A stretch of DNA of 64,000 nt from an uncultured Thermoleophilaceae bacterium (GCA_964455545.1 CAYVWQ010000005.1:24005-88004); one strand, 5' to 3'. Positions 11,175-58,530 are shown, counted from the stretch's first letter. Program-made: numbers and translations. Notes: generated from the sequence alone by a model not told the origin.

Positions 11175-12134
11175 TCAGAGCTCGGCGCGGCGTCGCAGGA
11201 TCTCCCTCGCGGCGCTTCCCGGGTCGAGCTTCCGTTCTACGACTTCGTCGAGCAACGCCTGGACAGCGGCGTCCTCGGCGATCGACTGCTCCAGCTCCGA
11301 ACGGAGGCTGATCGTGGCGAGCTCCAGCACTTCGTTGCGAAGATTGCGGCGGCGTCGCTCAGCGAGCGTGCCCTGCTCGGTGATGTGGGCACGATGTGCG
11401 TCGATCGCGTCGATCAGCTTGTCGATTCCGATGTCGTGCGCTGCCTGGGTCTGAATCACCGGCGGCGTCCAACCGTCGTCGGCGTGACCGAGCGCGAGCA
11501 CGCCCTTGATCTCGCGCACGAGTGTGTCCGTCATCGGGTGGTCGGCCTTGTTGACGACGATCACGTCGGGTATCTCCATCACACCGGCCTTCAGCGCCTG
11601 CACCGAGTCGCCACTTCCCGGCATCAGCGCGAGCACAATCGTGTCGGCGTGGTCGATCACGTCAATCTCGGCCTGCCCGACGCCGACCGTTTCGATCAGG
11701 ACGTTGTCGCGGCCGGCGGCGTCCATCAGCAGGGCGGCCTGCAGGGTCGCCTCCGAGAGGCCTCCGAGCGCGCCACGGTTGGCCATTGAACGGATGAACA
11801 CGCCCGGGTCGAGGAAATGCTCGGTCAGCCGGATGCGATCGCCGAGCAGCGCGCCTTGCGTGAACGGACTCGAAGGATCGATACTGAGCACTGCGATCGT
11901 CTCGTCCCGGGCCCGCAGGTGCTTTGCCATCACTCCGATCAGCGTCGACTTGCCGACCCCGGGAGGTCCCGTGAGACCGACCATCTTCGCCCTCCCGGTC
12001 TGCGGGTAGACCTCTTTGACCAGCTCCCAGCCGGTGGGGTCGTTGTTCTCGACGAGTGAGATCGCTCGCGCGAGTGCACGCTTGTCGCCTTCGACTAGGC
12101 GGCCTGCGAGGTCCTGTGCGGTCGAGGTGGCCAT
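11175..12134 (-). CDS. meaB: methylmalonyl-CoA mutase-associated GTPase MeaB/ArgK
   Basis: 319 aa. P-loop GPPGVGKST, DVIVVNKADH (NKxD) and overall ArgK/MeaB layout. Confidence 0.9.
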   Translation of the reverse strand: MATSTAQDLAGRLVEGDKRALARAISLVENNDPTGWELVKEVYPQTGRAKMVGLTGPPGVGKSTLIGVMAKHLRARDETIAVLSIDPSSPFTQGALLGDRIRLTEHFLDPGVFIRSMANRGALGGLSEATLQAALLMDAAGRDNVLIETVGVGQAEIDVIDHADTIVLALMPGSGDSVQALKAGVMEIPDVIVVNKADHPMTDTLVREIKGVLALGHADDGWTPPVIQTQAAHDIGIDKLIDAIDAHRAHITEQGTLAERRRRNLRNEVLELATISLRSELEQSIAEDAAVQALLDEVVERKLDPGSAAREILRRRAEL

Positions 12135-12143
12135 GCGGAGACG

Positions 12144-12878
12144 ATGGTATGCGCAGCGCCGGTCCTAGAGTTCCCGCCGATGAATCCCGGCGACGAGCAG
12201 CCGATCGTGATGGAATCCCCGGCGCCGCTGCGCGGCGGACCGCTGACGCTGCTGCGTTTCATGATCAAGAACCGCCTGTTTCGCGCGCGTTATCTCAAGA
12301 GCTACGCGCGGATGTTCTGGCACCGCGTGGTGCGCCGCCGCGCCCACGGCAAGAAGATCCACACGGACGGGCTGTGCTTCATCGGCAAGGATGTGGCAAT
12401 CGAGATCGGCCCGCTCGCTCACGTGTACCTCGAGCGTTGGAGCTGGGTCGGCAACCGCACGAAGCTGCGCGCACACGGCGGCTTCATCCGGATCGGCAGC
12501 AAATCGGTACTCGGCGAGGAGATCACCTTCAGCACCTACGAGGAGATCTCGATCGGACGCGAGTGCGTGATCGCCGACCGCGCGATGTTCATCGACTTCG
12601 ACCACATCACGGCCGACCCGGAGCAGGCGATCCGAAAGCAAGGCCTCTACAGCAAGCCGGTGCGAGTGGGGAACAACGTCTGGATCGGGTATGGCGCATG
12701 CATCCTGCGCGGCGTCACGATCGGTGACGGAGCTGTGATCGGCACGAACGCCGTGGTCACGAAGGACGTCCCGCCGAACGCGATCGTCGGCGGCGTGCCG
12801 GCGAGGGTGCTGCGGATGCGCGACGAGCCGAAGCGTCTGACCTGGAAGCCCGACCCGCCGCCGAAGCACCTGCGATGA
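12144..12878 (+). CDS. left-handed beta-helix (hexapeptide-repeat) acyl/acetyltransferase
   Basis: 244 aa. Hexapeptide repeats VGNNVWIGYGACILRGVTIGDGAVIGTNAVVTKDVPPNAIVGGVPARV. Exact start uncertain. Confidence 0.8.
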   Translation: MVCAAPVLEFPPMNPGDEQPIVMESPAPLRGGPLTLLRFMIKNRLFRARYLKSYARMFWHRVVRRRAHGKKIHTDGLCFIGKDVAIEIGPLAHVYLERWSWVGNRTKLRAHGGFIRIGSKSVLGEEITFSTYEEISIGRECVIADRAMFIDFDHITADPEQAIRKQGLYSKPVRVGNNVWIGYGACILRGVTIGDGAVIGTNAVVTKDVPPNAIVGGVPARVLRMRDEPKRLTWKPDPPPKHLR

Positions 12879-22966: not shown

Positions 22967-24511
22967 CTAGCCGCGCGGAACGAACTCGGGCACGTCCATG
23001 TCGGACAGCTCAACCGAGCTCTCACGACCGCGCGAGACACGGGGCTCACGGTCGGCGCGTGTCGCCTCGATCAGTGCGCTGCCGCGCGGTGCCTGGCTGC
23101 CGCGCACGCCGGACTGGGCGCCGCGCACGGTCTTCTGGCGGTGGTCGCCATAGCGCGTGGCGATGACCGTGACCCAGACCTGGTCGGTCAGCGACGGGTC
23201 GACCATCGCGCCGAAGATGATGTTGGCCTCGGGGTGCGCGGCCTCCTGGACGATCTTCGCGGCCTCGTTGACCTCCCAGAGGGAGAGGTCGGGACCACCG
23301 GTGATTGACAGCAGGATCGCGCGGGCACCTTCGATGCTGGTCTCGAGCAGCGGCGAGCTGACGGCCTGGTTGGCCGCTTCGACGCTGCGCGTGTCGGCAG
23401 AGCCGGCGCCCATACCGATTCCGAGCAGGGCCTGGCCCGCCTCGGACATGATCGTGCGGACGTCGGCGAAGTCGATGTTGATCAGGCCGGCCAACGTGAC
23501 GAGGTCGGAGATGCCCTGCACGCCCTGGCGCAGGACGTCGTCGGCGACGCCGAAGGCCTCGACCATCGAAGTGTTCTTGTCGAGGATCGACAGCAGGCGG
23601 TCGTTCGGAACGACGATCAGCGTGTCCACCTCGTCGGCCAGCGCCTCGACGCCGAGCGTTGCAGCGCCCTTGCGGCGCGTGCCCTCAAAGCCGAACGGCG
23701 TGGTGACGATGCCGACCGTGAGCGCGTCGACCTCACGCGCGATGCGCGCGACGATCGGTGCGGCACCCGTTCCGGTACCACCACCGGCTCCGGCCGTGAT
23801 GAAGATCATGTCGCTGCCCTTGAGCACGCGCTTGATCGCGTCGTAGTCGGCGACCGCCGCGCGGGCGCCCTGCTCCGGGTCCGCGCCGGCACCGAGGCCG
23901 CGCGTGATGTCGGCGCCGATGTGAAGCTTGATGTCGGCCGCACTGCCCTGCAGCGACTGCATGTCGGTGTTGATCGCGACGAACTCGACGCCGGTCACGC
24001 CGGCCTCGATCATGCGGTCGACGGCGTTGACGCCGGCACCGCCGACTCCGACCACACGGAGCACGGGCGTGACGACGCCGGTCGGCTGCTGGCTGAAGGC
24101 CGGGCCGTTCGGGTCGGGGATGTTGCGGCCGTAGTGAGCCGTCGGCTCGTCGGAGTTGCCGTCGAGGATGTCCGACGGGACGTGCATGTCAAAGACCTTC
24201 TTCAGGCGCTCCTTGGCCGGGACGTCGCTGGCGATCGTGTTCGCCTCGTTCTCGTAGCCACCGGCCTGGCCGGCTGCGGTGCGGGGACCGGCCTGCGGCT
24301 CGGCCGGGACGGCGGGCTCGGCCGGGGCCGGCTCTGTGGCCTGCGGCTGCTCGGGCTCGGGAGTGGCCTCGGGCTCAGGCGCCGGCGCGGCGGCCTCGGT
24401 CTCGGGTTCGGTCTTACGGAAGAGCGCAGCCAGCGGTCCCTCGCGCATCGAGGCACGCTTGTTCACTACCGGCTTGCCCTGGTCTTCAGGAGATCCGTTG
24501 TCAGTTGCCAT
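22967..24511 (-). CDS. ftsZ: cell division protein FtsZ with ~140-aa N-terminal extension
   Basis: [17 protein letters not shown], tubulin signature [10 protein letters not shown] and C-terminal peptide DMDVPEFV. The ATG at 24511 is preceded by AAGGAGG 9 nt upstream. The ORF stays open to 24556. Confidence 0.9.
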
Positions 24512-25286
24512 GCGCGATGACCTCCTTGGCCAACTCTCGGTAGGACTGCGCAGCAATCCCGTCTGGGTCGTACTTCAGCACCGACATGCCCTTCACCGGC
24601 GCCTCCGCGAAGCGGATCGTCTTCTTGATGCGAGAAGCAAAGACCCTGTCGCCGAAGTTCTCCTCGAGCAGCTCGATCGCCTCTTTGGCGTGGAGCGTGC
24701 GCGAATCGACCAACGTCGGCAGGATGCCTTCGATATCGACATCCGGATTCAGGTTCTCACGGATCATCTCGAGCGTGTTCTGAAGCTGGATGAGCCCTCG
24801 CATTGAGAGGTACTCACACTGTACGGGAACAATAACTTTGTCGGCGGCGGTGAGAGCGTTGATCGTCAGCAGGCCGAGGCTCGGCGGCGTGTCGATGCAG
24901 ATGAAGTCGTAGTCGCTGCGGACCTCGTCGAGCGCCTTGTCGAGGGCACGTTCGCGGCCGATCTGGGTCGACAGTGCCATCTCGGCGCCGGCCAGGTCGA
25001 TCGACGCGACGGCGACGTCGATCTCGCGGTGCACGATGATCTCGCTGATCGGTGTCTTGTGCACGAGCACGTCGTAGATGCTGGTCTCGACCGTGTCGGG
25101 GTCGACGCCCTGCGACATCGTCAGGTTGCCCTGCGGGTCCATGTCGATGCAAAGGACGCGGTGCCCCTCCTCGGCGAAGGCCGCGGACAGGTTGAGCGTC
25201 GTGGTCGTCTTGGCCACGCCGCCCTTCTGGTTGGCGAAGGCGATGACCTTGGCCTTCTTGGTCTTGTCCTGAGCTGATTCGGTCAT
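24501..25286 (-). CDS. ParA/Soj-family ATPase (orphan, no adjacent parB)
   Basis: The ATG at 25286 gives [29 protein letters not shown] (deviant Walker A KGGxxKT). 261 aa. The stop at 24501-24503 overlaps the ftsZ start. Confidence 0.9.
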
Positions 25287-25477
25287 GGTGCGGGTGCGGC
25301 TCCTGTGAGGAGTGGGCTTCAAAGTCGGATCGGGCCCGTCTATCAGGCCCGTTGGTGGCGTATTCGCAGGGGTTTGGGGTATTCCTGCACGAAGGTGATG
25401 TTGGATTTCCGCTCTGAGAGCGGGATCGCGGGGTGACCTCCAACAGCTCCTCCTCGGTCGACCCCATCCAGGCCCAG

Positions 25478-25575
25478 AATGGCTTCCGCCGGTTTTTGGG
25501 CGGAAGCCATTCGGTTCCGCCGGTTTTTTCGCGGAAGCCAATTCGGTTCCGCCGGTTTTTGGGCGGAAGCCATTC
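25478..25575. repeat. array of three tandem ~32-bp palindromic (REP-like) units
   Basis: Unit 1 is AATGGCTTCCGCC ggtttttg GGCGGAAGCCATT (perfect 13-bp stem). Units 2 and 3 are GGTTCCGCC...G(C/G)GGAAGCC with a one-base bulge. Period is 32 bp. The same family occurs at 36043-36134. Confidence 0.75.
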
Positions 25576-25623
25576 GGGTTGCTGTGGGTTTTCCGGGGTT
25601 GGGCGTCCGGGTAGCCTCAGGCC

Positions 25624-26577
25624 ATGGCTGACGCCCCGCCAGAGGACCTGTTTCAGCACCGGCTCCTCTTCGTGACCGGTAAGGGTGGCGTTGGCAAGAC
25701 GACCGTTGCCGCCGCGTTGGGACTCGCCGCCGCCCATGCCGGCCTGCGAACGATCGTCTGCGAGCTCGACGCACGCGAGCGCCTGCACAGCCTGTTCGAC
25801 GTCACGACACGCGGCTTCGAAGAGGTCGAGCTGCGGCCCGACCTGCACGCGATGGCGATCGACCCGGAGCACGCGATCGAGGAGTACCTGCTGCTGCAGA
25901 TCAAGGTCCGCCCGGTCTACGACATGATCTTCAAGAACCGGATCTTCGACTATTTCGCGGCCGCAACGCCGGGGCTGGCCGAGCTGGTGACGATCGGCAA
26001 GGTCTGGGAGCTGGCGCAACCGGACCGCCTGACCAAGAAGGCGCAGCCCTACGACCTGGTGATCGTCGACGCCCCCGCCACCGGCCACGCACTGGCGATG
26101 CTCGAGGCGCCCGAGACCTTCAAGAAAATCGCGCGCGTCGGGCCGATCCACCGCCAGGCCGGCTACATCCAGTCCTTCCTGCACGACCCGGCGACCACGG
26201 CAGTCATCGCCGTCGCGACGGCCGAGGAGATGCCGGTCAATGAAACACTCGACCTGCGCCGCGAACTCCAGGAGCGCGTCGGCCTCGACCTCGCGCTGAC
26301 CGTCGTCAACGCGCTCGAACCCGAGTACTTCAGCGCGAAGGAGATAGCCACTCTGCGCAAGGAGGAGCCGATCGCGCCGATCGAGGCGGCGATCCTCCAG
26401 TCCGAGCGGCACGACAGGCAGCGCGAGCAGTACGACCGCCTGATCGACGAGCTCGGCCGGCCGATCATCGATCTGCCGTTCATCTACGAGCGCGGGCTCG
26501 GTCGCCGCGAGCTCAACACGCTCGCCGACGAGCTCGCCGAGAAACTCGCACCGGCGCTCGCGAAGGCGGTCGGCTGA
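25624..26577 (+). CDS. ArsA/Get3-family ATPase (first of pair)
   Basis: 317 aa. P-loop FVTGKGGVGKTTVAAAL and ArsA-like layout (DAPATGH). Confidence 0.85.
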   Translation: MADAPPEDLFQHRLLFVTGKGGVGKTTVAAALGLAAAHAGLRTIVCELDARERLHSLFDVTTRGFEEVELRPDLHAMAIDPEHAIEEYLLLQIKVRPVYDMIFKNRIFDYFAAATPGLAELVTIGKVWELAQPDRLTKKAQPYDLVIVDAPATGHALAMLEAPETFKKIARVGPIHRQAGYIQSFLHDPATTAVIAVATAEEMPVNETLDLRRELQERVGLDLALTVVNALEPEYFSAKEIATLRKEEPIAPIEAAILQSERHDRQREQYDRLIDELGRPIIDLPFIYERGLGRRELNTLADELAEKLAPALAKAVG

Positions 26578-27665
26578 TGGACCTCGCAAAGACTCTCGAG
26601 CAGGTCGAAATCGCCGTCTGCGCCGGATCCGGCGGCGTCGGCAAAACGACCACGAGCGCCTCGATCGCGATCGGCATGGCGGCGCGCGGTCGCAAGGTCG
26701 CGGTGCTGACGATCGACCCTGCGAAACGCCTGGCGGACTCGCTCGGCCTCGCCGAACTCGGCACCGAGCTGAGGCAGGTCGACCCGAGGCTGTTTGACGG
26801 CTACGACCTCGAGCTGACCGGGGAGCTGCACGCCGCGATGCTCGACCCGAAACGCACCTTCGACGAACTGATCCTGCGCTACGCCCCCGACAACGAGACC
26901 TACGAGAACATCCTGAACAACCGGATCTACCAGGAGCTCTCCAACGCGATCGCCGGCTCACAGGAGTACATGGCGATGGAGAAGCTGCTTGAGCTGCACG
27001 AAAGTGGCAACTTCGACCTGCTGGTGCTCGACACACCGCCCTCGCGCAACGCACTCGACTTTCTCGACGCGCCGAAGCGACTCGCCCGCTTCATCGAGGG
27101 TCGCGCGCTCAGGGTCTTCCTCGCGCCGGGCCGCTTCGGGCTGAAGATCGCCGGCCGAGGCGGCAGCGTGCTGTTCTCGGCGCTGAAGAAGATCACCGGC
27201 GTCGACCTGCTCAACGATCTCTCGGAGTTCTTCGCCAACTTCGCAGACATGGCCAGCGGTTTCAGCGAGCGAGCTCAGCGCGTCGATGCTCTGCTGCGCG
27301 GCGACGACACGACCTTTCTGCTGATCTGCTCACCCGAGAACGAGCCGGTCGACGAGGCGATCTTCTTCCGGCGCATGCTCAAGGAGCAGAAGCTCCCGTT
27401 CGGCGGCGCGATCGTCAACAAGGTTCGTCCGAGTTACTACCGGGCCAAGAAGCAACTCCCGGACGACATCGACGAGGCGCTCGCAGCTCGGATCATGGAC
27501 AACTACGAGCGCCAGCGCCTACTCGGTGCCCGCGACGCCGACAACATCGCCCGGCTCGAGAAGTCACTCTCAGAGGCGAAGATGATCGAGGTGCCGCTGT
27601 TCTCCGACGACATCCACGGCATCGAAGGCCTCGTGCACATGGTCGACGTGTTGTTCGGCGACTGA
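26577..27665 (+). CDS. ArsA/Get3-family ATPase (second of pair)
   Basis: 362 aa. P-loop CAGSGGVGKTTTSASI, TIDPAKRLADSLG and DTPPSRNALDFL. The start overlaps the upstream stop (TGATG). Confidence 0.85.
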   Translation: MDLAKTLEQVEIAVCAGSGGVGKTTTSASIAIGMAARGRKVAVLTIDPAKRLADSLGLAELGTELRQVDPRLFDGYDLELTGELHAAMLDPKRTFDELILRYAPDNETYENILNNRIYQELSNAIAGSQEYMAMEKLLELHESGNFDLLVLDTPPSRNALDFLDAPKRLARFIEGRALRVFLAPGRFGLKIAGRGGSVLFSALKKITGVDLLNDLSEFFANFADMASGFSERAQRVDALLRGDDTTFLLICSPENEPVDEAIFFRRMLKEQKLPFGGAIVNKVRPSYYRAKKQLPDDIDEALAARIMDNYERQRLLGARDADNIARLEKSLSEAKMIEVPLFSDDIHGIEGLVHMVDVLFGD

Positions 27666-27666
27666 C

Positions 27667-30249
27667 TCAGACGCCGCCGCAGAAGTCATCGGGGTCGTCC
27701 GGGTCGGAGTCGACCACGGGACGAAACTCGATCGTCGCCGGTCCGATCTTCATCGTCCGGTCGTGCGCCTCCGGTTCGACTTCAGGCGTGGCTTCAGGAA
27801 ATTTCGCGACGACCACATCGGGGACCGATCGCAGTGGCGGCAGCAGGCGCGGGGCCGGCAACGGCTCAGGTTCGGTCTCGGTCTCGGTCTCGACCACGTC
27901 AGTCACGTCCGGCTCGGCCTCGGCGTCGATCACCTGATCGTCGCCCTTGCGCAGGAACTGCTCACTCCAGGCCAGCTGAGCGGCCTCTTCAGCCGAAGTC
28001 TCGGCGCCGAGCACGTCGTACTCGACGGTGAGCTGCGGGTCGACCGGCGCGGCGGGGTGAATCGGCTTCGAGACCTCAGGCTCAGAGGGCACGCCGCCGA
28101 AGACGTCCGGGTGGACGATGCGCTGCGCCGGCTGTTCCGGCTCGAGCGCGACAAGGTGCGGCTTGCCGTCGCGGCCGACGGGCGTGCTCACCGGCTCGTC
28201 GGCGTCGCGCGCCGGAGCCTGGAAGTTCTCGTCCATGATCTCGCGGAAACTCGCGCGCTGGTCCGAATCTTCGACATCGGCGTCGCTGCGCTGCGCGGCC
28301 GGCCCACGACCGAGCGGAACACCGAACTCCGGCACCGGGAAGGCCGGCGAGGATTCGTCGAGCGGAGCCGCTTCGGCCGCCCGCGCCGGACGCTCGGCGA
28401 CGGGCGCCGGCGCCTCGACAGGCTGGAAGTCGAAAGTGAAGCCGGTCGGCACCGCGGGCTGCGGATCTTTCGAGGCTCGGCGATCGGTGACGGGACGGCG
28501 CTCGGGGGTCGGATCCCATGACGGCACGACGGTCACGTCCTCCTCGGCCACAAACGGCTCGTCGGCGACGTCCTCGATCGAGAACTCCATCGACTCGCCC
28601 TCCATCGTGCCGGCCAGGGCCTGGTCGTAATCGTCCACGAGGTCGCCCGCGATTCGGTGCATCTCCGGCGTCGGCTCGGGAGCGGACTCCTCAACCGACT
28701 GCTGATCGGTCACGTACTCGCCGGTTGCGTCGACGACCTCGTCGGTCACGTCGGGCGCCGGCTGAATCTCTTCGGCCGGCTGCAGCGTCCAGACATTGTC
28801 GCCGGCGTCGCCCCGCGGAGCCTCTGCGGGCTCGACCCGCGCGTCGATCGCGCTGATCTCGGCGGTGTCGTCGAAGACGACGTCAAACTCGACGGTGGCG
28901 AGCGAGTCGACCCGGGTCTCGCCCGGAGCCGGAACCGGCTCCAGGTAGACGGGCTCCTCGACCTCGATCTCACTACCCGGCTGCTCGCCGTCGGCGGTGA
29001 GGATCTCGTCGGCGAGCGCCTTCAGGTCTGTCGAGAGGTAGCCGCAGACCAGGTCGTGCAGCAGAGCGCGAAGGTGACGCTCGACGCCGGCGATCACCTC
29101 GAGCGGAGTCATCTTTCCGAGTCGCTTGCGGTCGGCGCGTCCGACATGGCCGTCGACGGCAAGGCGTTCGAGTGCCAACGCCGCTTCAACTTCGTCACGC
29201 ACGATCAACCGCTCGTTCTCCTGTGCGCAGAGCGCCGAGACACGCGCGGGCAGCGCGGCCGTGCCGTGGTCGCCGCTCGCTTCGAGCAGCGCCTTGAGCG
29301 AAAGCATGAAGTCGGTGAGACCCTCGGCGGGAACGCCCCGCTCCAGGCCCATCTCAAAGCGCTTGAGCGCCCAAGAGATTCGCGTGCGGCGCTCGACGCG
29401 GCGAACCGCGTTGACGAACTGGCGCAGTTCCTCGTCGTCCTCGGCGCGCAGCTCCCATGCGTTCTCGCGGGAGCGACCGGTGAACGGCACTGAAACCTGG
29501 TGCCACGAGCCGGCGACCTCGGCCTGAGCGGTCATCCCGAGCGCGACGCTGCCGGGCCGGAACAGACGCAGTGCAGTCAACATCACGCGCGCCGACTGGC
29601 GCACAGCCGGCATCGGCGTCGGGGCGTCGCTCGGTGCGGTGACCGAGATCGAGCAGAAGCAGTCGGCACCCTCGGCGCCGTCGGAGAAGCGGTCGGCGCA
29701 GGTCGGGTCGAGTTCCTCCGCGGCGACGAGCTCAACGCCGCCGCCAAGGTTGATCGATCCGTCGGCGAGCGCGACGCCGTGGACCGGAATGAACACGGTG
29801 GTCACGAGGCGCTCGGCGAGCACGACCGACTCAAGCTCGGTGTACGCGCGCTCGAAGCGCTCCTCCCATTGTTCGAAGCGTTCGGCGTCCTGCCAGACGG
29901 CCGAGAGGAAAGCGAGCACGCCGAGGCGCGCGTGCGTGAGCTCACCGACGTCCAGGATCGGTTCGTCGCGGACGCGGAGGTAGGCGATCACGCCACGGGT
30001 GCGGGCGAGGTTCTGGGCGGCGTTCTCGAAGCCCGAGAGCGATCGAAGCTGATCGGCGTGCGACGAGACGAACTCGGCCGTGAGCGGCCGGTAGGCGAAC
30101 ATCGCGACGCCGCCGCGGGCGTCGGCGGGATGTGACGACTCCCCTACTTCGAAGGGGATCTCCGCACCGGAGTTGACGAGGTTTTCGAGCTGCAGCGACG
30201 CGTCTTCGGTCAGCGCGCGCAGCGAGTCGTGAAGCATTCGATCGCGCAT
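27667..30249 (-). CDS. hypothetical protein: ~430-aa N-terminal domain plus long acidic Pro/Glu/Asp-rich disordered C-terminal half
   Basis: 860-aa ORF with consistently high GC3 over its full length. No TM segment, no signal peptide and no motif I recognise. Confidence 0.7.
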   Translation of the reverse strand: MRDRMLHDSLRALTEDASLQLENLVNSGAEIPFEVGESSHPADARGGVAMFAYRPLTAEFVSSHADQLRSLSGFENAAQNLARTRGVIAYLRVRDEPILDVGELTHARLGVLAFLSAVWQDAERFEQWEERFERAYTELESVVLAERLVTTVFIPVHGVALADGSINLGGGVELVAAEELDPTCADRFSDGAEGADCFCSISVTAPSDAPTPMPAVRQSARVMLTALRLFRPGSVALGMTAQAEVAGSWHQVSVPFTGRSRENAWELRAEDDEELRQFVNAVRRVERRTRISWALKRFEMGLERGVPAEGLTDFMLSLKALLEASGDHGTAALPARVSALCAQENERLIVRDEVEAALALERLAVDGHVGRADRKRLGKMTPLEVIAGVERHLRALLHDLVCGYLSTDLKALADEILTADGEQPGSEIEVEEPVYLEPVPAPGETRVDSLATVEFDVVFDDTAEISAIDARVEPAEAPRGDAGDNVWTLQPAEEIQPAPDVTDEVVDATGEYVTDQQSVEESAPEPTPEMHRIAGDLVDDYDQALAGTMEGESMEFSIEDVADEPFVAEEDVTVVPSWDPTPERRPVTDRRASKDPQPAVPTGFTFDFQPVEAPAPVAERPARAAEAAPLDESSPAFPVPEFGVPLGRGPAAQRSDADVEDSDQRASFREIMDENFQAPARDADEPVSTPVGRDGKPHLVALEPEQPAQRIVHPDVFGGVPSEPEVSKPIHPAAPVDPQLTVEYDVLGAETSAEEAAQLAWSEQFLRKGDDQVIDAEAEPDVTDVVETETETEPEPLPAPRLLPPLRSVPDVVVAKFPEATPEVEPEAHDRTMKIGPATIEFRPVVDSDPDDPDDFCGGV

Positions 30250-35976: not shown

Positions 35977-36042
35977 ACATCGTTAAGGAGTCAGGACCGC
36001 GATGTTTACCCCCCTCCCGCAAAATGTTTCCCCACCCCAAAC

Positions 36043-36134
36043 TGGCTTCCGCCGGTTTTTTGGCGGAAGCCATTCGGTTCCGCTCGTTTTTGCGCGGAAG
36101 CCGGTGGCTTCCGCCGGTTTTTTGGCGGAAGCCA
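36043..36134. repeat. array of three tandem ~31-bp palindromic (REP-like) units next to the RAYT gene
   Basis: TGGCTTCCGCC ggtttttt GGCGGAAGCCA occurs at 36043-36072 and again at 36105-36134. A degenerate middle unit GGTTCCGC tcgtttttgc GCGGAAGCC separates them. Same arm sequence as 25478-25575. Confidence 0.75.
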
Positions 36135-44947: not shown

Positions 44948-47900
44948 TCAGCGCTTGAAGTAGCCCTTGCCCTGAATCACGTCGTTGATCCACGCGCGAA
45001 GCTTCACTTTCTTCTTCCGCTTGACCGCGGCGCGGATCTGTTTGTAGACCGACTTCTTCAGCTTGAACGTGACGGTCTTCTTGCTGCTGGAGCCCTTCAG
45101 CGTGACGCCCTTGGGCCAGTAGTTGACGCCGCTTCCGGTGATGCCGATCGTCACCAGGCAGGTCTCGGTGCAGGTCGTCTTGAACTTCAGCTTGGTCTTG
45201 AGCTTGGTCTTCTTGGACACCGAGAGCTTGAGCTTCTTCGGCGCGGGGGGCGTCTCGCCGCCGGTCGAAGGCGGGAGCAGCGGCGCCTGGTGGGCGATCA
45301 GCACCGTCAAGCTGCCGGTGTTACCGGCGCCGTCAGTGCATGTGATCATGAAGCTGTTGACGCCGACGGCGAGGCTGACCGGCTGTCCGCTCGGGCGGTT
45401 ACAGGTGATTTTGCCGTTGGCCATGTGCGCATCGGTCTCGCTGACGTCGTCGACGACGCTGTAGGTCAGCGGCACAGAGTTCGCGTCGATGCTGGCGCCG
45501 TTGAGGCTCGTGGAGATGACCGGCGGAGTCGTGTCGGTCACGCCCTCCCAGTTGACGAGCGCGGCCGCGTTCGCACCGGTGGCGCCGTCAGCCGACGGAT
45601 TGCTCGTGCGCATGATGCGGATCGAGCTGATGTGATCCTCCCAGCGCGGAGCGAAGCGCTGATAGGTGCCGTTCGGCACCCGGATGCAGTCACTGAAGTC
45701 GTCGCCGCGGCAGAGGTCGGCCATGAAGCCCGTGTCGACCTTGATCGAGCTCAGCTGGTTGTCGCCGATGTCGGTGAGGTTGCCCTTCGAGGCGCGGTAG
45801 GAGCCGAGACCGAAGTCCTGGCTTGAACCGTTCTCGGCCGGGTTCGGGTCGGAGAGGTCGCGCTCCTGGAAGCCGCGCGCCGTGCGCAACTTGTTCTGCA
45901 GCGAGAGGCTTGCGCCGATCTGGACGGCCTTCGCGACGGACGGCGTGCCGTTCTGGTCCAGCAGGAACAGCCAGTAGTAGCCCGGCGGTGCCTCGTAGGG
46001 GTTTGCCGGCGTGTGGATCTTCGCGGAGGTGGCGCTGTTGATCGTCAGGTCGACCGGCACGAAACGCTGGGACTGGTCAAAGCCGTGCGTCGGCGCGCCC
46101 TGCTTGATCAGCACGGCCTTGCTCAGCGGCACCCCTCCCGACGCCTGCGTGTAGCTGATCGAGAGATCCTTGTCGTACTCGGTCGCAGGCAGGAACTGTC
46201 CTGCGTTGACGCCGCTCCCGTCGGTGTGGAGCGGGCCGGTGATCTGCGGACGCTGGGCGAGAGACTTGCGACTTCCGTCTGAATTGAAGAGGTACGGCGG
46301 CGAGTAGAACTCGAAGTTCGCCTGTGAGTATCCGGCCGTGGTGCAGGTGCTGCAGACGCCACCGCCGCCCGACATCACGCGTCCGTCGGCCAGCAGGATC
46401 GCCGTCGAGTGGTACTGGCGCGGGCGGTGCAGGTTCGCCATCACCTTCCACGTGTTGGTGTCCGGGTCCCACTGCTCGGCTGCGAAAACTGCGCGCTTGT
46501 AATTGACGAGCGTCTGGTTGATGTTCGCGTCGTTGCCGTCCATCGCTTCGCCGTCAGGTGTGTCGCCGGCGATCGCGGGCGTGATCTGCTCCGGGTTGAT
46601 CGCGTCGTCGTTGGCGTTCGTGGTCGACATGCCGCCGGATGAAAGGAGCTTGCCGGTCGGGAGGATCGTCAGGTTGGCCATGCGACGCGGGTAGTTCATC
46701 GAGGCGGCCTGCGTCGAGGTAGGCCAGCCCGGGTAGCGCGTGACCAGCACGTTGTTGTTGTACGGGTCCTCATCGCCGGTGGTAGCGCGCGCCGTGATCA
46801 GGGCGGCCTGCTTCGAGGAGCCGTTGTGCAGGTGGTTGTTGTTGCCGCCGGTGTCCTGGGCGGCCGCGTTGTTGCCGACACACCAGTCGATGTTCCAGAC
46901 CTCCGTGAGGTCGGCCGATCCCGTCCAGTTGCCGTTGCCGTCGTACTTGTAGGGGTTGCCGCCGGCGAATCCCTTGCAGACCCAGTTGGCGTCCGGTCCG
47001 GTCAGGTGCTGGTCGCCGCCGGCGTAGGGATTGGCCCCCGGGTCGGTGACGTCTCCGGCCGGGCAGGCGGCGGTCGCCGCGATGTTCGTTCCCGGCCACC
47101 CGGGCCCGCGGTTGCCGGCCGGAACCGTGAAGCAGTAGATCTTGTCGACGTCGCCGCCGGTGACGAGCACCTTGCCCGGCGCGTAGTAGGCGCCGGTGCC
47201 GTAGGTGCGCGTGATCGGATTGGCGCCGTCTGCACGCTTGGTCACGTAGCGGTCGCCGCCGTCATCCGACTCTGTCGTGTCGTTTTCCGGCTGATACGAG
47301 GCGTCGTCGCCGCCGGCCTGGTGCTTGCGCGAGTCGACCGTGAGCACGTTCTCCTCACGGCCGGCGTAGAGCAGGCGCCCGTCGACCCACGGGAAGATGA
47401 ACGGGTAGAGGCGCCAGGCGGGCACGCTCGGAAGGTTCTGGTTGTAGTACGGATTTTCGAGCGCGCCGAGCTTGCGGATCTTGTCGGTCGGGTTGTTCTC
47501 GTCCCAGGTCTGCGTGGTCGTCGGGTTGAGGCTGCCGTCGAGCGCGCCCGACTCGTAGTTCGAGGTGAACACCTCGGGAACGCCGTCGCCGGGCTGGCTC
47601 AGGTCGATGTTGCCGGCCTCGTCCTGCGGGTCACCGCCGACGATCATCGCCTCGCCGTTCCAGGTGGTGGCGACCGACGGGTACCAGCGCACGCGCGACA
47701 TGTCCTGGCTCTGGTCCCATGTGCCGGTACGCCAGTGGTAGACGAAAGTCGTCTTCAGACCGGCGAGCGCGACGTTCGCGTTGCCTCCGGCGAGCAGCAG
47801 GTCGCCGTTGGGCAGCTGCTGGAAGCCGGCGCAGAAGAGGTTGGCGCCGGGGACGTCCTTGCGGATGCCCTTGTAGCCGGGCTCTTCGGCGCGGGCCGGA

Positions 47901-48778
47901 TCCCACAGCAGCACGCGCGTGCCCTTCTTGTGGTCGACCTCCTGGTCGGGGTCGGTCATGTTGCCGCTGAAGTACCAGTCCCAGTAGATGACCTGACCGT
48001 TCGGCAGCATCGCCTCGAAGATCGGGATGATCCGCGGGTTCGGCGACCAGTAGCGCGAGTTGCCGGTCGGCGTGTTCGGATCGGCGGGATCCGAGTCGTA
48101 GTCGGCGCTCGTGTCGACGATCGGGTCGCCGGGGAACTGGATGTTCGGCGTGTCCTTGTACTGCGGGTTCGGGAATCCGTTCGGACCCGTCACGCCGGTC
48201 GGTGAGGGTCCGGCGACATATGAGTTGTAGGTGTCGTACTGCGGCGTGACCGGGTCGCTCCACTCGCCGTACTCGGCGGGGTTGCCGTTGTTGTTCACCG
48301 CAAAGGTCGACGCCGAACCCCGCGAGAGTGTCGCCTTGGCGAGCTGCTCCGAGTCTGGTGCCGTGATTTCGCCGCCGTCGCGGGCGACCGGCATGTCGCC
48401 GGTGGCCGACGCATAGCCGCCGGAACCGTCGAGCGAGTTCATCGGCATGCCGAGCGACTGCATCAGCACGCGCTCGCGGATCTCCTGATCCGAGAGCAGC
48501 ACAAGTCCGTTGTCCTCGGCGTACTTCTTCCAGCGCTTCTGAGCTGCCTTCTTGGCCTTGGCGGTCGCCACGGCGCTCTTGCGCGCGGCGTCGTACGAGG
48601 AGGTGAGTCCGTCGGCCTCGGCGTGGGCTTCGCTTCCGGCCGCCAGCTCGGCGTCGGAAACGCCCTCCTCATGCGCGGAAGCGACGACCGCGAACGCGGC
48701 GACACAGGCAAGCGCGAGCATCGTGGCTGCGGCCACTGCCAGCGCTTCGCGGATGCGACTTGTTGCGAAAAATTTCAT
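44948..48778 (-). CDS. large secreted galactose-oxidase/glyoxal-oxidase-like protein (Kelch propeller + DUF1929) with extra C-terminal domains
   Basis: 1276 aa. Signal peptide. PRQYHSTAILLADGRVMSGGGG and FEFYSPPYLF...GYYWLFLLDQNGTPSVA (DUF1929-like). Then a beta/gamma-crystallin-like segment (NQLSSIKV...DHISSIRI), a HYR-like segment (TCTDGAGN) and a Lys-rich tail. Confidence 0.8.
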   Translation of the reverse strand: MKFFATSRIREALAVAAATMLALACVAAFAVVASAHEEGVSDAELAAGSEAHAEADGLTSSYDAARKSAVATAKAKKAAQKRWKKYAEDNGLVLLSDQEIRERVLMQSLGMPMNSLDGSGGYASATGDMPVARDGGEITAPDSEQLAKATLSRGSASTFAVNNNGNPAEYGEWSDPVTPQYDTYNSYVAGPSPTGVTGPNGFPNPQYKDTPNIQFPGDPIVDTSADYDSDPADPNTPTGNSRYWSPNPRIIPIFEAMLPNGQVIYWDWYFSGNMTDPDQEVDHKKGTRVLLWDPARAEEPGYKGIRKDVPGANLFCAGFQQLPNGDLLLAGGNANVALAGLKTTFVYHWRTGTWDQSQDMSRVRWYPSVATTWNGEAMIVGGDPQDEAGNIDLSQPGDGVPEVFTSNYESGALDGSLNPTTTQTWDENNPTDKIRKLGALENPYYNQNLPSVPAWRLYPFIFPWVDGRLLYAGREENVLTVDSRKHQAGGDDASYQPENDTTESDDGGDRYVTKRADGANPITRTYGTGAYYAPGKVLVTGGDVDKIYCFTVPAGNRGPGWPGTNIAATAACPAGDVTDPGANPYAGGDQHLTGPDANWVCKGFAGGNPYKYDGNGNWTGSADLTEVWNIDWCVGNNAAAQDTGGNNNHLHNGSSKQAALITARATTGDEDPYNNNVLVTRYPGWPTSTQAASMNYPRRMANLTILPTGKLLSSGGMSTTNANDDAINPEQITPAIAGDTPDGEAMDGNDANINQTLVNYKRAVFAAEQWDPDTNTWKVMANLHRPRQYHSTAILLADGRVMSGGGGVCSTCTTAGYSQANFEFYSPPYLFNSDGSRKSLAQRPQITGPLHTDGSGVNAGQFLPATEYDKDLSISYTQASGGVPLSKAVLIKQGAPTHGFDQSQRFVPVDLTINSATSAKIHTPANPYEAPPGYYWLFLLDQNGTPSVAKAVQIGASLSLQNKLRTARGFQERDLSDPNPAENGSSQDFGLGSYRASKGNLTDIGDNQLSSIKVDTGFMADLCRGDDFSDCIRVPNGTYQRFAPRWEDHISSIRIMRTSNPSADGATGANAAALVNWEGVTDTTPPVISTSLNGASIDANSVPLTYSVVDDVSETDAHMANGKITCNRPSGQPVSLAVGVNSFMITCTDGAGNTGSLTVLIAHQAPLLPPSTGGETPPAPKKLKLSVSKKTKLKTKLKFKTTCTETCLVTIGITGSGVNYWPKGVTLKGSSSKKTVTFKLKKSVYKQIRAAVKRKKKVKLRAWINDVIQGKGYFKR

Positions 48779-49555: not shown

Positions 49556-50910
49556 GCGAACGTGAACACTTTGACTCGATCGTGATCGGCGCCGGCCCGG
49601 CCGGCGAGGTCGTCGCCGGCGAACTTGCTGCGGGCGGCCAGAAGGTCGCGGTGGTCGAGAAGGAACGGGTGGCGGGCGAGTGCTCGTTCTGGGCCTGTAT
49701 GCCGTCGAAGACCCTGCTGCGACCGTCCGAGGTGCTGATGAGCGCCACCCGCGTCCCCGGTGCGGCCGAGGCCGTAGGCGGAAAGGTTGACGTGAAGGCG
49801 GCTCTGGCGTGGCGCGACCGCATGGTCAGCAACTGGGACGACTCCGGTTACGTGACCTGGCTGACAGACCGCGGCATCGAGCTGGTCCGCGGCGCCGGAC
49901 GGCTCGTCGGCGACGGCGGCGTGGACGTCGAGGACCGACGCCTCGCGGCAGACAACATCGTGATCGCGACCGGCTCGGTGCCGGTCGTCCCGCCGATCGA
50001 AGGACTCGCAGAAGCGCGCTTCTGGACCAACCGCGAAGTCACGGGCGCCAAAGAGATCCCCGAACGACTGTTGATCCTTGGCGGCGGAGTGGTCGGCGTC
50101 GAGATGGCGCAGGCCTACGCGCGGTTCGGCTGCTCGGTCGCGCTGATCGAAGCCGCCGAGAACATCCTCCCCGGCGAGGATCCGCGGGTCGGAGACTCGA
50201 TCGCCGCATCGCTGAAAGACGACGGCGTCGCTATTCACACCGGCGTCACGGCGACGCGGGTGCACGGCGGCGAGCACGAACAGCGCGTCGAGCTCAGCGA
50301 CGGAACCGAGCTGCGCGGCAACGAGTTGCTCGTGGCGACCGGACGCCGGCCGGCCACCGACGGCCTCGGCCTCGAATCGCTACCGGTCAAGCTCGAGCGC
50401 GGCGCGATCGAGGTCGACAAACGACTGCGGGCGGCAGACGGGATCTACGCGATCGGCGACGCAAACGGCATTCATCTCACCACGCACACGGGTAAGTACC
50501 AGGCGCGGGTGGCGGCCGCCGAGATCCTCGGACACGGAACCGACGCCGACTACTCGGCGATCCCGCGCGTCGTCTACACCGACCCGAATGCCTTCGGCGT
50601 CGGTCAGACCGGCGGCGCCGTCACCGGAACCGCAGGCGTCGCCGAGACCGCGGCCTCTTCGATCGTGCGCGTCGACTGGCGCAACGCACACGACGAGTTC
50701 CTCACGCTCGTCGGCGACGACAACGGACGGATCATCGGCGCCTTCGCCGTCGGCCCCCACGCGGCGGACTGGATGGGACAGGCGATCCTCGCGGTCAAGG
50801 CGAAGCTGGACGCGGCGACACTCGCCGCCACGATCCAGCCGTTTCCGTCGATGTCAGAGATCTTCACGCTCGCGGCGCGCGACCTGCTCGGCAACCTCGG
50901 TCAGAAGTAG
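49552..50910 (+). CDS. class I pyridine nucleotide-disulfide oxidoreductase (FAD-dependent; dihydrolipoyl-dehydrogenase/mercuric-reductase-like)
   Basis: 452 aa. IVIGAGPAGEV, redox CxxxxC GECSFWACMPSK, second Rossmann LILGGGVVGVE, and AIGDANG. Confidence 0.85.
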   Translation: MSEREHFDSIVIGAGPAGEVVAGELAAGGQKVAVVEKERVAGECSFWACMPSKTLLRPSEVLMSATRVPGAAEAVGGKVDVKAALAWRDRMVSNWDDSGYVTWLTDRGIELVRGAGRLVGDGGVDVEDRRLAADNIVIATGSVPVVPPIEGLAEARFWTNREVTGAKEIPERLLILGGGVVGVEMAQAYARFGCSVALIEAAENILPGEDPRVGDSIAASLKDDGVAIHTGVTATRVHGGEHEQRVELSDGTELRGNELLVATGRRPATDGLGLESLPVKLERGAIEVDKRLRAADGIYAIGDANGIHLTTHTGKYQARVAAAEILGHGTDADYSAIPRVVYTDPNAFGVGQTGGAVTGTAGVAETAASSIVRVDWRNAHDEFLTLVGDDNGRIIGAFAVGPHAADWMGQAILAVKAKLDAATLAATIQPFPSMSEIFTLAARDLLGNLGQK

Positions 50911-52811
50911 CCGTCGAAATCCCAGTCGGCGACCGTCGTGCGCTGGGTGTTCGGGTCGTAGTAGGTGAGCGAGAGCTGCTCGAGGCTGAAGTCGTCCGCG
51001 ACCGGCTTGAAGCCGCCGCCGAGCATCGCCATGTTGACGAGGCCGACGAGGTCGCTCGTGAACGGCGGTGGCGGCGTTGGCCCGCAGTCCTTGGCCTCGA
51101 ACGTCTGGCCCGCCAGTTCGACGTCGTACATCACCGCGTGCTCCCAGGCGCCGCCGGGAGCGCGGCGCAGTTCGATGTCGCCATCCGCGATCGCACCGCC
51201 CGATCCGCTCGCCTCATAGCGGCAGCCGCCCGGCGCCCCGATCACGTTCTTCACCTCGTGCTGGGTGACGTCCTTGAGCTTGTACCAGGCGTCGACGTAG
51301 CCGCCGGGACCGACGTTGACCGACTCGAGCTCGTACTCGGCCCACGCGTCGAAGTAGTCACTGGAGCCGGGGCCGGTCCCGGTCGCGCTGATGATCCCGG
51401 TGAAACGCTTGGGGACCTTGACGGGGTCGGCCTTCGCGTACCAGCCGCTCTCGGCGCGGCCGGCCGTGGACGTCGCGATCACGGAGCTGGCGGCCGTTGC
51501 GTCGTCACTGTCGCGCTTGTCCGCTCCGCGCGCCGAAAACGTCGCCGGCGCACCGGGATCTGACTGCGCCTTGTTCGCCGTGAACGAACCGAGCTCGACC
51601 GACTGAACGGCGAATTCGCCGCGCGCGACGCCGCCGGCGGTCGACACCACCGACCCTTCGACAGCTGCGCTGGCGCCCTCGGCGAGCCTGGCGATCGGAT
51701 CCGGGCTCCAGGTGATCCGAGCGCAGCCGTTGGGAATCGAGTACCAGCGGTACTCGTCGCCCTTCATGCGCCAGCGTGCGAGCTCGGCGGTCGCCGCCAC
51801 CCCTCCGGTCAGCTCGCCGTCCGCCGCAGCGCTCGCCGCGAGCTTGCGGGCTTCGGCGGCCTCGGCAACCGATGACATCCCCGCGACTTTCAAGCTGACG
51901 TCGCCTTTCGGCCCGGCGGTCGCGACGGGATCGCCATCCCTGGAGATCGTGTACGAGCCGGTGAGCGTACGGACGATCTGAGTGCCGCGGGCGTAGATCT
52001 CGTGCTTGGTCGTGGCCGTTGCCTCAACGTCGTGCAGGCGCGCGTCACGGCCGACGTGGCCTTCGGCCTTCAGGCTCTGGCTGGACTTGATCGTGTAGGC
52101 ACCGACCTGCTTGCCCTTGCGGAAAAAGCTCGTGGTGCCGCCGACCAGCGACTTGTACTCGATGAAGAGCCTGCCGTCCGCAGTCGGACACTCGACCTGC
52201 GGCACGATGCCGATGTCATTGATCGAGGTCGGCTGATAGCGCACGCTGTCGGACCCTTTCGAGACCTCCATCGTCACCTGCGCACTCGTCTGGCCGTCGT
52301 CGAACGCCTGCGCATCGACCTTGGCAGAGACCTTGACGCCTCCGGCGAGCGTGACCGACCCCGCATCCATGGTGATCGTGTCAACCACTACGCGACCGGC
52401 TGCGCCGCTCGCGCTGACGAGCGCCAACGGAGCCCGCCGCGCTCGCAGCGTCTTCGGTGAGGTGAGCTTCGACGTCGCCTCGGCCAGCAGTTCGTCGGCG
52501 AGTTTTGCGACCCGCGGGGTGGCGCGCCGGATCGCACGCGACTTCCCGAGCCGAGCCGCCTGCCTCTTTGCGTCCCGACCCGAGAACCACTCTTTCAGCT
52601 CTGCAGAGGCAGTCAGCTTCCCGCGCTTCATCCGCGGCCGCGCCGGGCGCAGGCAGACCGGCTTGCGGTTGGCCTTCCACGTGACCTTGCCGCGCTTGCA
52701 GGTAGCCGCGCCGCTGACCGTGGGGGCGACCAGCAGCGCCGCGACAGCGGCGAGCAGCACGACGAGCGACATCGCGGCAACTCTGAGTGAACGTGAGGGG
52801 TAAAACGACAT
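50901..52811 (-). CDS. secreted hypothetical protein
   Basis: 636 aa from the ATG at 52811. Signal peptide MSFYPSRSLRVAAMSLVVLLAAVAALLVAPTVSGA. No recognisable domain. Confidence 0.65.
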   Translation of the reverse strand: MSFYPSRSLRVAAMSLVVLLAAVAALLVAPTVSGAATCKRGKVTWKANRKPVCLRPARPRMKRGKLTASAELKEWFSGRDAKRQAARLGKSRAIRRATPRVAKLADELLAEATSKLTSPKTLRARRAPLALVSASGAAGRVVVDTITMDAGSVTLAGGVKVSAKVDAQAFDDGQTSAQVTMEVSKGSDSVRYQPTSINDIGIVPQVECPTADGRLFIEYKSLVGGTTSFFRKGKQVGAYTIKSSQSLKAEGHVGRDARLHDVEATATTKHEIYARGTQIVRTLTGSYTISRDGDPVATAGPKGDVSLKVAGMSSVAEAAEARKLAASAAADGELTGGVAATAELARWRMKGDEYRWYSIPNGCARITWSPDPIARLAEGASAAVEGSVVSTAGGVARGEFAVQSVELGSFTANKAQSDPGAPATFSARGADKRDSDDATAASSVIATSTAGRAESGWYAKADPVKVPKRFTGIISATGTGPGSSDYFDAWAEYELESVNVGPGGYVDAWYKLKDVTQHEVKNVIGAPGGCRYEASGSGGAIADGDIELRRAPGGAWEHAVMYDVELAGQTFEAKDCGPTPPPPFTSDLVGLVNMAMLGGGFKPVADDFSLEQLSLTYYDPNTQRTTVADWDFDGYF

Positions 52812-54974: not shown

Positions 54975-55048
<74 letters not shown>

Positions 55049-55068
55049 TTTCTCGCTACGTCGACTCC

Positions 55069-55095
55069 CGCCCAGTGAAAGGGCGTATTTTTTTT
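55069..55095 (+). terminator. rho-independent terminator after the tRNA
   Basis: CGCCC agtgaaa GGGCG followed by TATTTTTTTT. Confidence 0.6.
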
Positions 55096-55105
55096 GTCGG
55101 CGCCA

Positions 55106-56188: not shown

Positions 56189-56193
56189 CTTCC

Positions 56194-58448: not shown

Positions 58449-58530
58449 CTCGACCATTTAAACTCCATCCCACTCGTGCCGGGCATCGCGGCACAACTCT
58501 CCCGCGAACCGCGTGCAAAGGATTTCACGG

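Follow-up and report, generated by a model that had tools for sequence, protein, structure and literature searches.

A translationally coupled parA-ftsZ pair of the Thermoleophilia, with a conserved basic peptide at the N-terminus of an FtsZ paralogue

In Caulobacter the ATPase MipZ, which belongs to the ParA/MinD ATPases, acts directly on FtsZ and positions the Z ring without MinCD (reviewed in PMC7022226). The partner proteins that activate ParA/MinD ATPases carry short, positively charged N-terminal extensions, and in PomX such a peptide is combined with an unstructured region rich in alanine and proline and with a polymerising domain (PMC7993993). PldP and Rv1708, orphan ParA proteins of Actinobacteria, bind ParB, localise near the septum and have an effect on division (PMC3989709, PMC7022226, PMC10482377), the division phenotypes of the family coming from Corynebacterium glutamicum and Mycobacterium smegmatis (PMC3989709, PMC10482377). 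This family is a long-standing suspect with neither a known mechanism nor a direct partner in the divisome, and the choice of the division site in Actinobacteria that have no Min or nucleoid-occlusion proteins is unresolved. Here we describe a locus that makes this question testable, a parA-like gene coupled to an ftsZ, both on the minus strand of a 64,000-nucleotide stretch of DNA from an uncultured Thermoleophilaceae bacterium (GCA_964455545.1, CAYVWQ010000005.1:24005-88004). The whole of this 64 kb stretch is referred to below as the window, and positions are counted from its first letter unless another locus is named.

The ParA-like ATPase gene (24501..25286, minus strand), probably of the PldP/Rv1708 orphan type, encodes 261 residues from an ATG at 25286 to a TGA stop at 24503-24501. 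The ftsZ gene that follows (22967..24511, minus strand) encodes 514 residues from an ATG at 24511-24509 to a stop at 22969-22967, and its product is termed type (i), or FtsZ(i). As read from the sequence, the stop of the first gene and the start of the second overlap by 11 nucleotides (24501..24511, minus strand), an arrangement indicating translational coupling, and a Shine-Dalgarno sequence for ftsZ, AAGGAGG (24521..24527, minus strand), lies within the 3' coding end of parA, 9 nucleotides before the ftsZ ATG. An earlier note on this DNA, made from the sequence alone, had reported the overlap and the AAGGAGG inside parA; the coordinates of the overlap are confirmed, the strand, absent from that note, is added, and the ribosome-binding site is located at 24527-24521. 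The same note had seen ggt, an ABC exporter, hisC and a rhodanese downstream and no ftsQ, ftsA, sepF or mur gene nearby. Pfam scans of 43 open reading frames (ORFs) of the window agree on both counts: 3' of ftsZ stand ggt, an ABC ATPase, an ABC-2 permease, a class I/II aminotransferase and a rhodanese, and the scans found no mur, ftsQ, ftsA, ftsW or sepF across the 64 kb, nor is there any other ftsZ in the window. The ORFs scanned are ordinary housekeeping and metabolic genes. A plasmid or other mobile origin was considered and ruled out, because the neighbours are housekeeping genes and because the module is also located in complete chromosomes.

The pair is not peculiar to the window. The best 120 matches to FtsZ(i) come from metagenome-assembled genomes (MAGs) of Thermoleophilia labelled Solirubrobacterales, Thermoleophilaceae or Solirubrobacteraceae; nearly all are 470-580 residues long and cover 96-100% of the window FtsZ. 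Locus contexts were obtained from 5 metagenome contigs and at least 28 species-representative genomes, and the parA-ftsZ-ggt block is the same in these, including MAGs labelled Gaiellaceae and Gaiellales. A ParA gene lies directly upstream in every fetched N-extended FtsZ locus with upstream sequence, the two genes overlapping by 11, 14, 17 or 29 nucleotides in 32 of the 33 measurable junctions. At 35 of 36 loci a Shine-Dalgarno-like site precedes the start of ftsZ by 6-12 nucleotides and, as in the window, stands within parA. Of the two partners it is ParA that is better conserved, the linked ParA proteins being 69-94% identical against 47-82% for FtsZ(i). The parA-ftsZ(i) pair is a two-gene, translationally coupled operon conserved across the class Thermoleophilia, and the adjacency in relatives that the earlier note had marked for checking is borne out at every fetched locus where upstream sequence exists.

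Several of the database entries collected in this survey deserve a remark of their own. Locus L007 (CAMCUD010000008.1), labelled 'Bifidobacterium breve', and P0335, labelled 'Deltaproteobacteria bacterium', carry a module of the Thermoleophilia type and are probably mislabelled or mis-binned MAG contigs. P0022 (MBJ7458367.1) and P0067 (MBJ7459944.1) are distinct type (i) FtsZs, 89% and 95% identical to the window protein, whose accessions lie 1577 apart under the same organism name, so that they come from neighbouring MAGs of a single submission or from one two-strain bin. At locus L086 (GCA_016213645.1) a small ORF and a PIN-domain gene (11762-12463), which are not in the window, stand between ftsZ(i) and ggt and look like a toxin-antitoxin pair.

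Thermoleophilia-labelled loci also hold a second kind of FtsZ, here called type (ii), a canonical protein of about 360-380 residues with neither an extension nor an accompanying parA. Its gene sits in the division and cell wall (dcw) cluster, in the order mraY-murD-ftsW-murG-murC-murB-ftsQ-ftsZ and then gcvT-gcvH-gcvP, and the type (ii) proteins, 79-97% identical, occur in MAGs with the same family names as those with type (i). Among the matches listed, no dcw gene lies within 8-10 kb of any of the 33 type (i) loci; of the 51 other FtsZ loci, about 50 have one so near. Both types are found together in relatives. In GCA_016213645.1 the contig with FtsZ(i), JACQZY010000027.1, is syntenic with the window, running through a sigma factor, a T2SSE ATPase, HxlR, a large unannotated protein, bagB and bagA and continuing, divergently, with parA, ftsZ(i), ggt, the ABC transporter, the aminotransferase and the rhodanese; the dcw cluster with ftsZ(ii) is on JACQZY010000014.1, and the two contigs have G+C contents of 65.5% and 65.3%. 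GCA_016650075.1, from an independent project, likewise contains both ftsZ types in one assembly, and six more pairs of type (i) and type (ii) have GenBank protein accessions 58-1061 apart, their pairing being inferred from this proximity; one of them includes P0024, a protein with 93% identity to the window FtsZ. Since its close relatives also keep a canonical dcw ftsZ, FtsZ(i) is a second FtsZ, a paralogue, in this lineage, and it is very likely that the window's own genome has a second, dcw-located ftsZ as well. The search for such a gene that the earlier note had suggested has therefore succeeded in relatives, and its implicit reading, that the cell's FtsZ had been displaced from the dcw cluster, is wrong for the lineage. 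That the window gene could be the organism's sole housekeeping FtsZ, relocated from dcw, would suit a full-length, well-conserved gene that has kept its C-terminal peptide in a window with no other ftsZ; set against the syntenic genome with both types on contigs of equal G+C content, the independent assembly and the six accession-neighbour pairs with their 93% identical member, we regard it as very improbable.

The age and placement of the two types can be gauged from the FtsZ core. Core identity is 61% between type (i) and type (ii), 74% between type (ii) and Rubrobacter FtsZ and 68% between type (ii) and the short form described below, values that fit an old duplication. The FtsZs linked to ParA all fall into a single clade of a rough neighbour-joining tree, in which type (ii) groups with Rubrobacter inside the Actinobacteria. 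The dcw clusters themselves differ in make-up: in the Thermoleophilia loci L087, L040 and L055 murB-ftsQ-ftsZ runs without ftsA and is followed by gcvT, gcvH and gcvP, and the Rubrobacter locus L062 reads ftsQ-ftsA-ftsZ-yfiH-ylmE-sepF...divIVA.

FtsZ(i) has the core of a complete FtsZ. It scores 395.2 bits with the TIGR00065 ftsZ equivalog model (cutoff 295.2) and matches the Pfam families Tubulin (1.3e-44, residues 152-310) and FtsZ_C (2.8e-30, residues 359-452), so that the GTPase and C-terminal domains span residues 151-452 (23156..24061, minus strand). The first GTPase strand begins at about residue 151, where the Pfam match starts at 152 and AlphaFold2 (AF2), given a 72-sequence alignment, places a strand at 151-156; the predicted local distance difference test score (pLDDT) of the core is mostly above 85. 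The GGGTGTG loop (G243-G249) and N345, D347 and D350 of the T7 loop (NIDFADV) are invariant in the 72 sequences. At the other end the C-terminal peptide DVPEFVPR (residues 506-513; 22973..22996, minus strand), of the kind that serves membrane anchors, is kept in relatives as DVPEF(V/I/M)PR, with V507, P508, E509, F510, P512 and R513 invariant in alignment A1 and P508, E509, F510 and P512 still invariant in the 72 sequences of alignment A2; the canonical peptide that had been read in the window protein is thus also conserved among its relatives.

The part of FtsZ(i) that sets it apart is the region before the core, and within it a basic peptide at residues 18-34 (24410..24460, minus strand), in which AF2 predicts a short helix at 28-31. 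Across the 72 long-form sequences of A2, M22, R23, E24, G25, P26, L27, L30, F31 and T34 are invariant and K18, R19, A20, S21, A28 and R32 nearly so. Over 34 loci each of the invariant residues makes use of 2-5 synonymous codons, methionine of ATG alone; the residues are fixed while their synonymous codons vary, and therefore selection acts on the protein and not on the DNA. With 5 lysines or arginines in 17 residues the peptide forms a basic island in an otherwise acidic extension, and it is present in all 36 loci scanned. In most relatives it begins at residue 3-5, in the window protein at residue 18. It is common to the long, the Gaiellales-like and the short forms, being the sole universal part of the extension, and its position 23 is arginine in the long form and lysine or arginine in the short form.

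Beyond this peptide the extension, whose whole length among relatives is 43-210 residues, is far more variable. A linker rich in proline, glutamate and alanine (residues 35-98; 24218..24409, minus strand) has a combined fraction of these three residues of 0.66 and contains 13 acidic residues against 1 basic one; its length varies from about 20 to 190 residues in relatives. It is followed by a second short motif, with KERLKKVF (residues 99-110; 24182..24217, minus strand), in which R102, L103 and F107 are invariant in A2 and for which AF2 predicts a helix at 99-108. This motif is lineage-restricted: a motif search missed it at the loci of Gaiellales-like form, at the short-form locus and at 11 further loci of long form. 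Outside the two short helices the pLDDT of the extension is below 50, a prediction of disorder, and no Pfam family matches it. When residues 1-40 were compared by phmmer with 1.84 billion representatives, a search of low power, the sole matches were truncated pieces of FtsZ(i) and a single artefactual repeat protein. The earlier note had thought an extension of about 140 residues, with its high G+C content at third codon positions (GC3), probably translated, and both the GC3 of codons 1-150 (0.87, with stops in both other frames) and the conserved peptide agree with it; by these signs translation of the extension begins at the ATG of 24511. The internal methionine of MHVPSD, named in that note as the true start that would undo the reading, is excluded because residues 18-34 are conserved under protein-level selection. 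What the earlier note wished to see of the extension in relatives takes the form of a near-invariant peptide at the extreme N-terminus with a variable linker behind it.

This region is easily lost from public annotation. Records P0022 (404 residues), P0024 (381 residues) and P0039 (377 residues) start at an internal methionine and lose the whole extension, and P0035 begins at the methionine of MREGPL; the extended FtsZ locus at L086 9947-11692 is cited with such internal-methionine annotations. At least four public records thereby hide the extension or the residues before the peptide.

The linked ATPase belongs to the ParA fold, matching Pfam AAA_31 at 1e-63 and Soj/ParA structures over its full length at 1e-45 to 1e-61. 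Its deviant Walker A motif KGGVAKTT (residues 21-28; 25203..25226, minus strand), read from the translation, is invariant in 12 ParA proteins from 12 loci (alignment A3) and includes the signature lysine of the KGGxxK[ST] pattern, as KGGVAKT. The nearest solved structures are 4PFS/5IHP (210 bits), M. xanthus ParA 8RAY (204 bits) and Thermus thermophilus Soj (174 bits). The window protein is 46% identical to 4PFS, a structure from M. smegmatis that we take to be MSMEG_3743, and 42-44% identical to chromosomal ParA/Soj. None of the NCBIfam equivalogs is matched at its cutoff, no curated PldP model exists, and the assignment to PldP is weak when it is made from sequence alone. Two other families were considered and set aside: MinD, for which TIGR01968 gives 59 bits against a cutoff of 212.9 and the C-terminus (...AKEVIAHGN) has no amphipathic helix obvious by eye, and MipZ, for which PF09140 is matched only at profile positions 2-136 of 262, far below AAA_31. 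Nor does the locus look like a ParABS system, there being no adjacent parB (the 3' gene is ftsZ and the 5' neighbours are divergent ArsA/Bag-like genes) and no ParB-type GLGRGL motif in the window or the fetched loci.

Gene order also bears on the identity of the ATPase. A short-form sister family of 389-411 residues begins with M[AV]DRPSMKDGLxELFRRTD followed by about 20 residues, and its gene, overlapping parA by 17 nucleotides, stands in the context ruvCAB-queH-queA-tgt-yajC-parA-ftsZ-scpA-scpB-rluB, with cmk and der further downstream. In loci L068, L090 and L091 of this form parA therefore lies just 5' of scpA-scpB apart from the inserted ftsZ, which is not so in the window. In Mycobacterium tuberculosis the PldP/Rv1708 locus has the order Rv1708-scpA-scpB-rluB-cmk-engA. 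In M. smegmatis the PldP-type gene MSMEG_3743 adjoins scpA, MSMEG_3742 (PMC10482377). From the short-form order parA-ftsZ-scpA-scpB-rluB it follows that the ATPase is the positional orthologue of PldP/Rv1708 with an ftsZ inserted behind it, and the kinship to PldP at which the earlier note had guessed finds its support here, in short-form relatives that hold the PldP/Rv1708 position. In GCA_016213645.1 scpA-scpB lie 6 kb downstream of the dcw ftsZ with no parA in front, which would fit a departure of the parA-ftsZ(i) pair from scpAB in the long-form lineage. The short form in the pldP-scpAB locus suggests a path by which an ftsZ was inserted behind pldP and the pair was later relocated.

How the two proteins might work together can be framed by comparison with ParA of M. 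xanthus, in which V116, L150, L152, L155, L187 and L192 line the pocket for the ParB N-terminus and the variant ParA-R238E has its DNA-binding arginine mutated (PMC12462528). The six pocket positions (M103, L137, L139, I142, M174 and L179 in the window ParA) are hydrophobic in 35 of 35 linked ParA proteins and are invariant or conservatively substituted across all of them. The position of R238 is R225 in the window protein and arginine or lysine in all 35 relatives, and its retention suggests that the ATP-bound dimer of this ParA would sit on the nucleoid. FtsZ(i) in turn bears the generic signature of an activator, a basic peptide at the extreme N-terminus with a cognate ATPase encoded next to it.

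We propose that the N-terminal peptide acts as a handle, docking on the adjacent ParA and activating its ATPase; that it docks directly on ParA and has a role in the spatial control of division is, in our judgement, an evenly balanced proposition. Folded into a short helix, the peptide would occupy the hydrophobic pocket in which chromosomal ParA proteins receive the ParB N-terminus. Filaments of FtsZ(i) would display many such peptides and for that reason could act as a multivalent cargo and activator of ParA, much as the PomX polymer does for PomZ, and the ATPase cycle of ParA would determine where they lie in relation to the nucleoid. Positional information might then pass to the divisome by co-assembly with the housekeeping FtsZ or through common partners of the C-terminal peptide, with an effect either positive, by marking the site, or negative, by sequestration on the nucleoid. 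A handle borne by FtsZ itself would short-circuit the link through ParB of PldP/Rv1708. The scheme taken as a whole, in which the FtsZ paralogue is ParA cargo and activator, a PldP-type ratchet positions its filaments and the housekeeping Z ring is nucleated or steered by them, is put forward tentatively and is less likely than not. The short-extension lineage might even have no FtsZ other than the one that bears the handle. Of the pair for FtsZ positioning that the earlier note had envisaged, the conserved coupled module and the translated extension stand, and the FtsZ concerned turns out to be a paralogue and not a displaced housekeeping copy.

A number of points weigh against this proposal. 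The pocket is identical in loci with long and with short peptide variants, so that there is no co-variation between the two. A hidden Markov model (HMM) of 7 ParB N-termini left the FtsZ peptide outside its best 45 matches among 9,778 ORFs, and a search of the PDB with a profile of the peptide gave a chance match only (E=2). The idea that the peptide is a ParB-like GLG[RK]GLxAL[LI] motif was dropped, as the HMM does not lift it above background ORFs; these two null results confine the likeness to ParB to hydrophobic spacing and charge. The spacing i, i+4, i+7, i+8 of MKDGLSELF in the short form does match L11, L15, L18 and I19 of M. xanthus ParB, and the central basic residue of the peptide is offset relative to ParB, with an extra proline in the long form. 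Operon linkage can mean co-regulation without direct contact, and a simple hydrophobic-moment calculation does not discriminate, leaving room for binding to the membrane.

The last of these points leads to a reading in which the peptide is a membrane-targeting amphipathic helix with which FtsZ(i) anchors itself, ParA being co-expressed and making no contact with it. L27, L30 and F31 are flanked by arginine or lysine and AF2 predicts a short helix; the fetched dcw clusters have no ftsA between ftsQ and ftsZ, so an extra anchor is plausible. Precedents exist in the FtsZ of Mycoplasma, which is reported to bind the membrane directly by an amphipathic helix (10.1101/2023.08.29.555414), and in the dual FtsZs of Odinarchaeota, which reportedly have distinct membrane-tethering features (PMC12583498). 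Yet 13-16 consecutive residues are nearly identical, the polar R23, E24, G25, P26 and T34 included, despite a core identity of about 60-66%, and lipid binding usually needs less than this. There are just three large hydrophobic residues, the strict coupling to ParA would go unexplained, and the hydrophobic moment tells nothing here, because it does not single out known membrane-targeting sequences either. On balance we think self-anchoring unlikely.

The partner of the peptide might instead be neither ParA nor the membrane, for example the housekeeping FtsZ, a kinase acting on the serine of RASM, or the neighbouring Get3/BagAB-like ATPases. S21 is nearly invariant, BagA/BagB-like genes lie divergently beside parA in many long-form loci, and in heterocyst-forming cyanobacteria an N-terminal peptide of FtsZ is needed for normal polymerisation (PMC6175996). 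The BagAB genes, however, are missing at the Gaiellales-like and short-form loci, where the peptide and ParA are universal; AF2 gives no docking of the peptide on the FtsZ core, and the invariant operon structure finds no explanation, so that a partner of this kind seems rather improbable. A further reading removes the pair from cell division altogether: ParA and a tubulin-family polymer would position or segregate DNA or a cytoplasmic body, with FtsZ(i) as track or scaffold. ParA-type ATPases do position chemoreceptor clusters and carboxysomes (PMC7993993), the short-form pair sits beside the condensin genes scpA and scpB, and a canonical FtsZ is available for division. A protein well above the ftsZ equivalog cutoff that has retained D[VI]P[ES]F, the C-terminal peptide for binding to the divisome, and is coupled to a member of a family with division phenotypes, is hard to reconcile with such a role, which we consider quite improbable. 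Docking of the peptide on the adjacent ParA remains the reading that we prefer.

The surroundings of the pair include features of less certain bearing. The divergent intergenic region 5' of parA (25287..25623, without strand) presumably holds the promoter, no match to a sigma-70 consensus being found in it, and its membership of the module is uncertain. It contains three tandem 31-nucleotide copies of a repeat (TTCCGCCGGTTTTTGGGCGGAAGCCATTCGG) at 25484-25577 (interval 25474-25578), between parA and bagA, each unit forming a hairpin with 14-nucleotide arms and a T-rich loop; a near-identical hairpin copy occurs at 36040-36075, in another intergenic region 10.5 kb away. None of these units, the distant copy included, is expected by chance, and they look like a dispersed palindrome of the repetitive extragenic palindromic (REP) type or a bidirectional terminator element. 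Beyond this region, divergent beside parA, 25624-27665 (plus strand) encodes two ATPases of the Get3/ArsA fold, nearest to mycobacterial BagA/BagB and below the NCBIfam cutoffs. Their neighbourhood is kept in most Solirubrobacterales long-form loci and not in Gaiellales-like or short-form loci, for which reason the Bag-like gene pair is probably not part of the parA-ftsZ module. Next to it, 27667-30249 (minus strand) encodes an acidic, proline- and glutamate-rich protein of 860 residues with no Pfam or NCBIfam match, which is syntenic beside the Bag-like genes in relatives (831 residues in L001, 948 in L086) and adjoins HxlR, a T2SSE-type ATPase and a sigma-70 factor.

Elsewhere in the window three large ORFs with high GC3, at 44948-48736 (minus strand), 50901-52811 (minus strand) and 58513-61830 (plus strand), encode proteins of 1262, 636 and 1105 residues that are nearly without family, the sole match being a galactose-oxidase-like E-set domain in the 1262-residue ORF. 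A tRNA gene at 54975-55048 is followed by a 3-kb stretch of lower G+C content (59-63% against 66.6% for the window; interval 54975-58000), which has genes for a response-regulator/HD-domain protein and for a PAS hybrid histidine kinase and looks ordinary.

A search of the literature found no description of a Thermoleophilia FtsZ, of an FtsZ paralogue coupled to ParA, or of an FtsZ with a ParA-type handle. The survey thus brings to light an FtsZ duplication hidden in a deep-branching actinobacterial class that is abundant in soil, and it leads to the concrete hypothesis that ParA has as its partner a specific 16-residue peptide carried by an FtsZ paralogue. If true, this would be the first FtsZ with a ParA-activating handle and would explain in molecular terms how the enigmatic PldP/Rv1708 family works. 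Small and soluble, the proteins lend themselves to expression and assay outside their uncultured hosts.

Among described systems, two kinds of precedent concern FtsZ itself. The archaeal FtsZ1/FtsZ2, those of Odinarchaeota and the plastid FtsZ1/FtsZ2 are likewise two co-existing and differing paralogues (PMC12583498). The Thermoleophilia case differs in being bacterial, a class-specific duplication with an obligatory ParA operon and a basic N-terminal peptide, in which type (i) and type (ii) keep a similar C-terminal peptide. The N-terminal peptide of cyanobacterial FtsZ is also a lineage-specific conserved extension important for function (PMC6175996). It belongs to a single housekeeping FtsZ and has a role in polymerisation, and the abstract describes no ParA partner for it (PMC6175996).

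The other comparisons concern the ATPase. MipZ inhibits an ordinary FtsZ and is organised by ParB, with no N-terminal handle on FtsZ and no paralogue. PldP of C. glutamicum (Cg1610), Rv1708 and MSMEG_3743 are homologous ATPases, and the M. smegmatis protein solved as 4PFS has the same KGGVAKT Walker A motif. Their genes in Corynebacterium and Mycobacterium have no adjacent ftsZ and their known partners are ParB and ScpA, whereas here the gene forms an operon with a dedicated FtsZ paralogue and the window pair stands outside the scpAB locus. There is a likeness in organisation to PomX/PomY/PomZ of M. xanthus, where a ParA-like ATPase that binds the nucleoid acts together with a partner that forms polymers and has an activating, conserved basic N-terminal peptide followed by an unstructured Ala/Pro-rich region (PMC7993993). 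The Pom system sets the division site. The polymer partner here would be an FtsZ paralogue, in Pom it is a coiled-coil scaffold; parA and ftsZ(i) are translationally coupled, and no PomY-like gene was seen conserved beside the pair, PomY homologues not having been searched for by sequence. While the scheme of an ATPase with a peptide-bearing partner is already known, what is new here is that the activator-peptide partner of a ParA/MinD ATPase would be an FtsZ paralogue.

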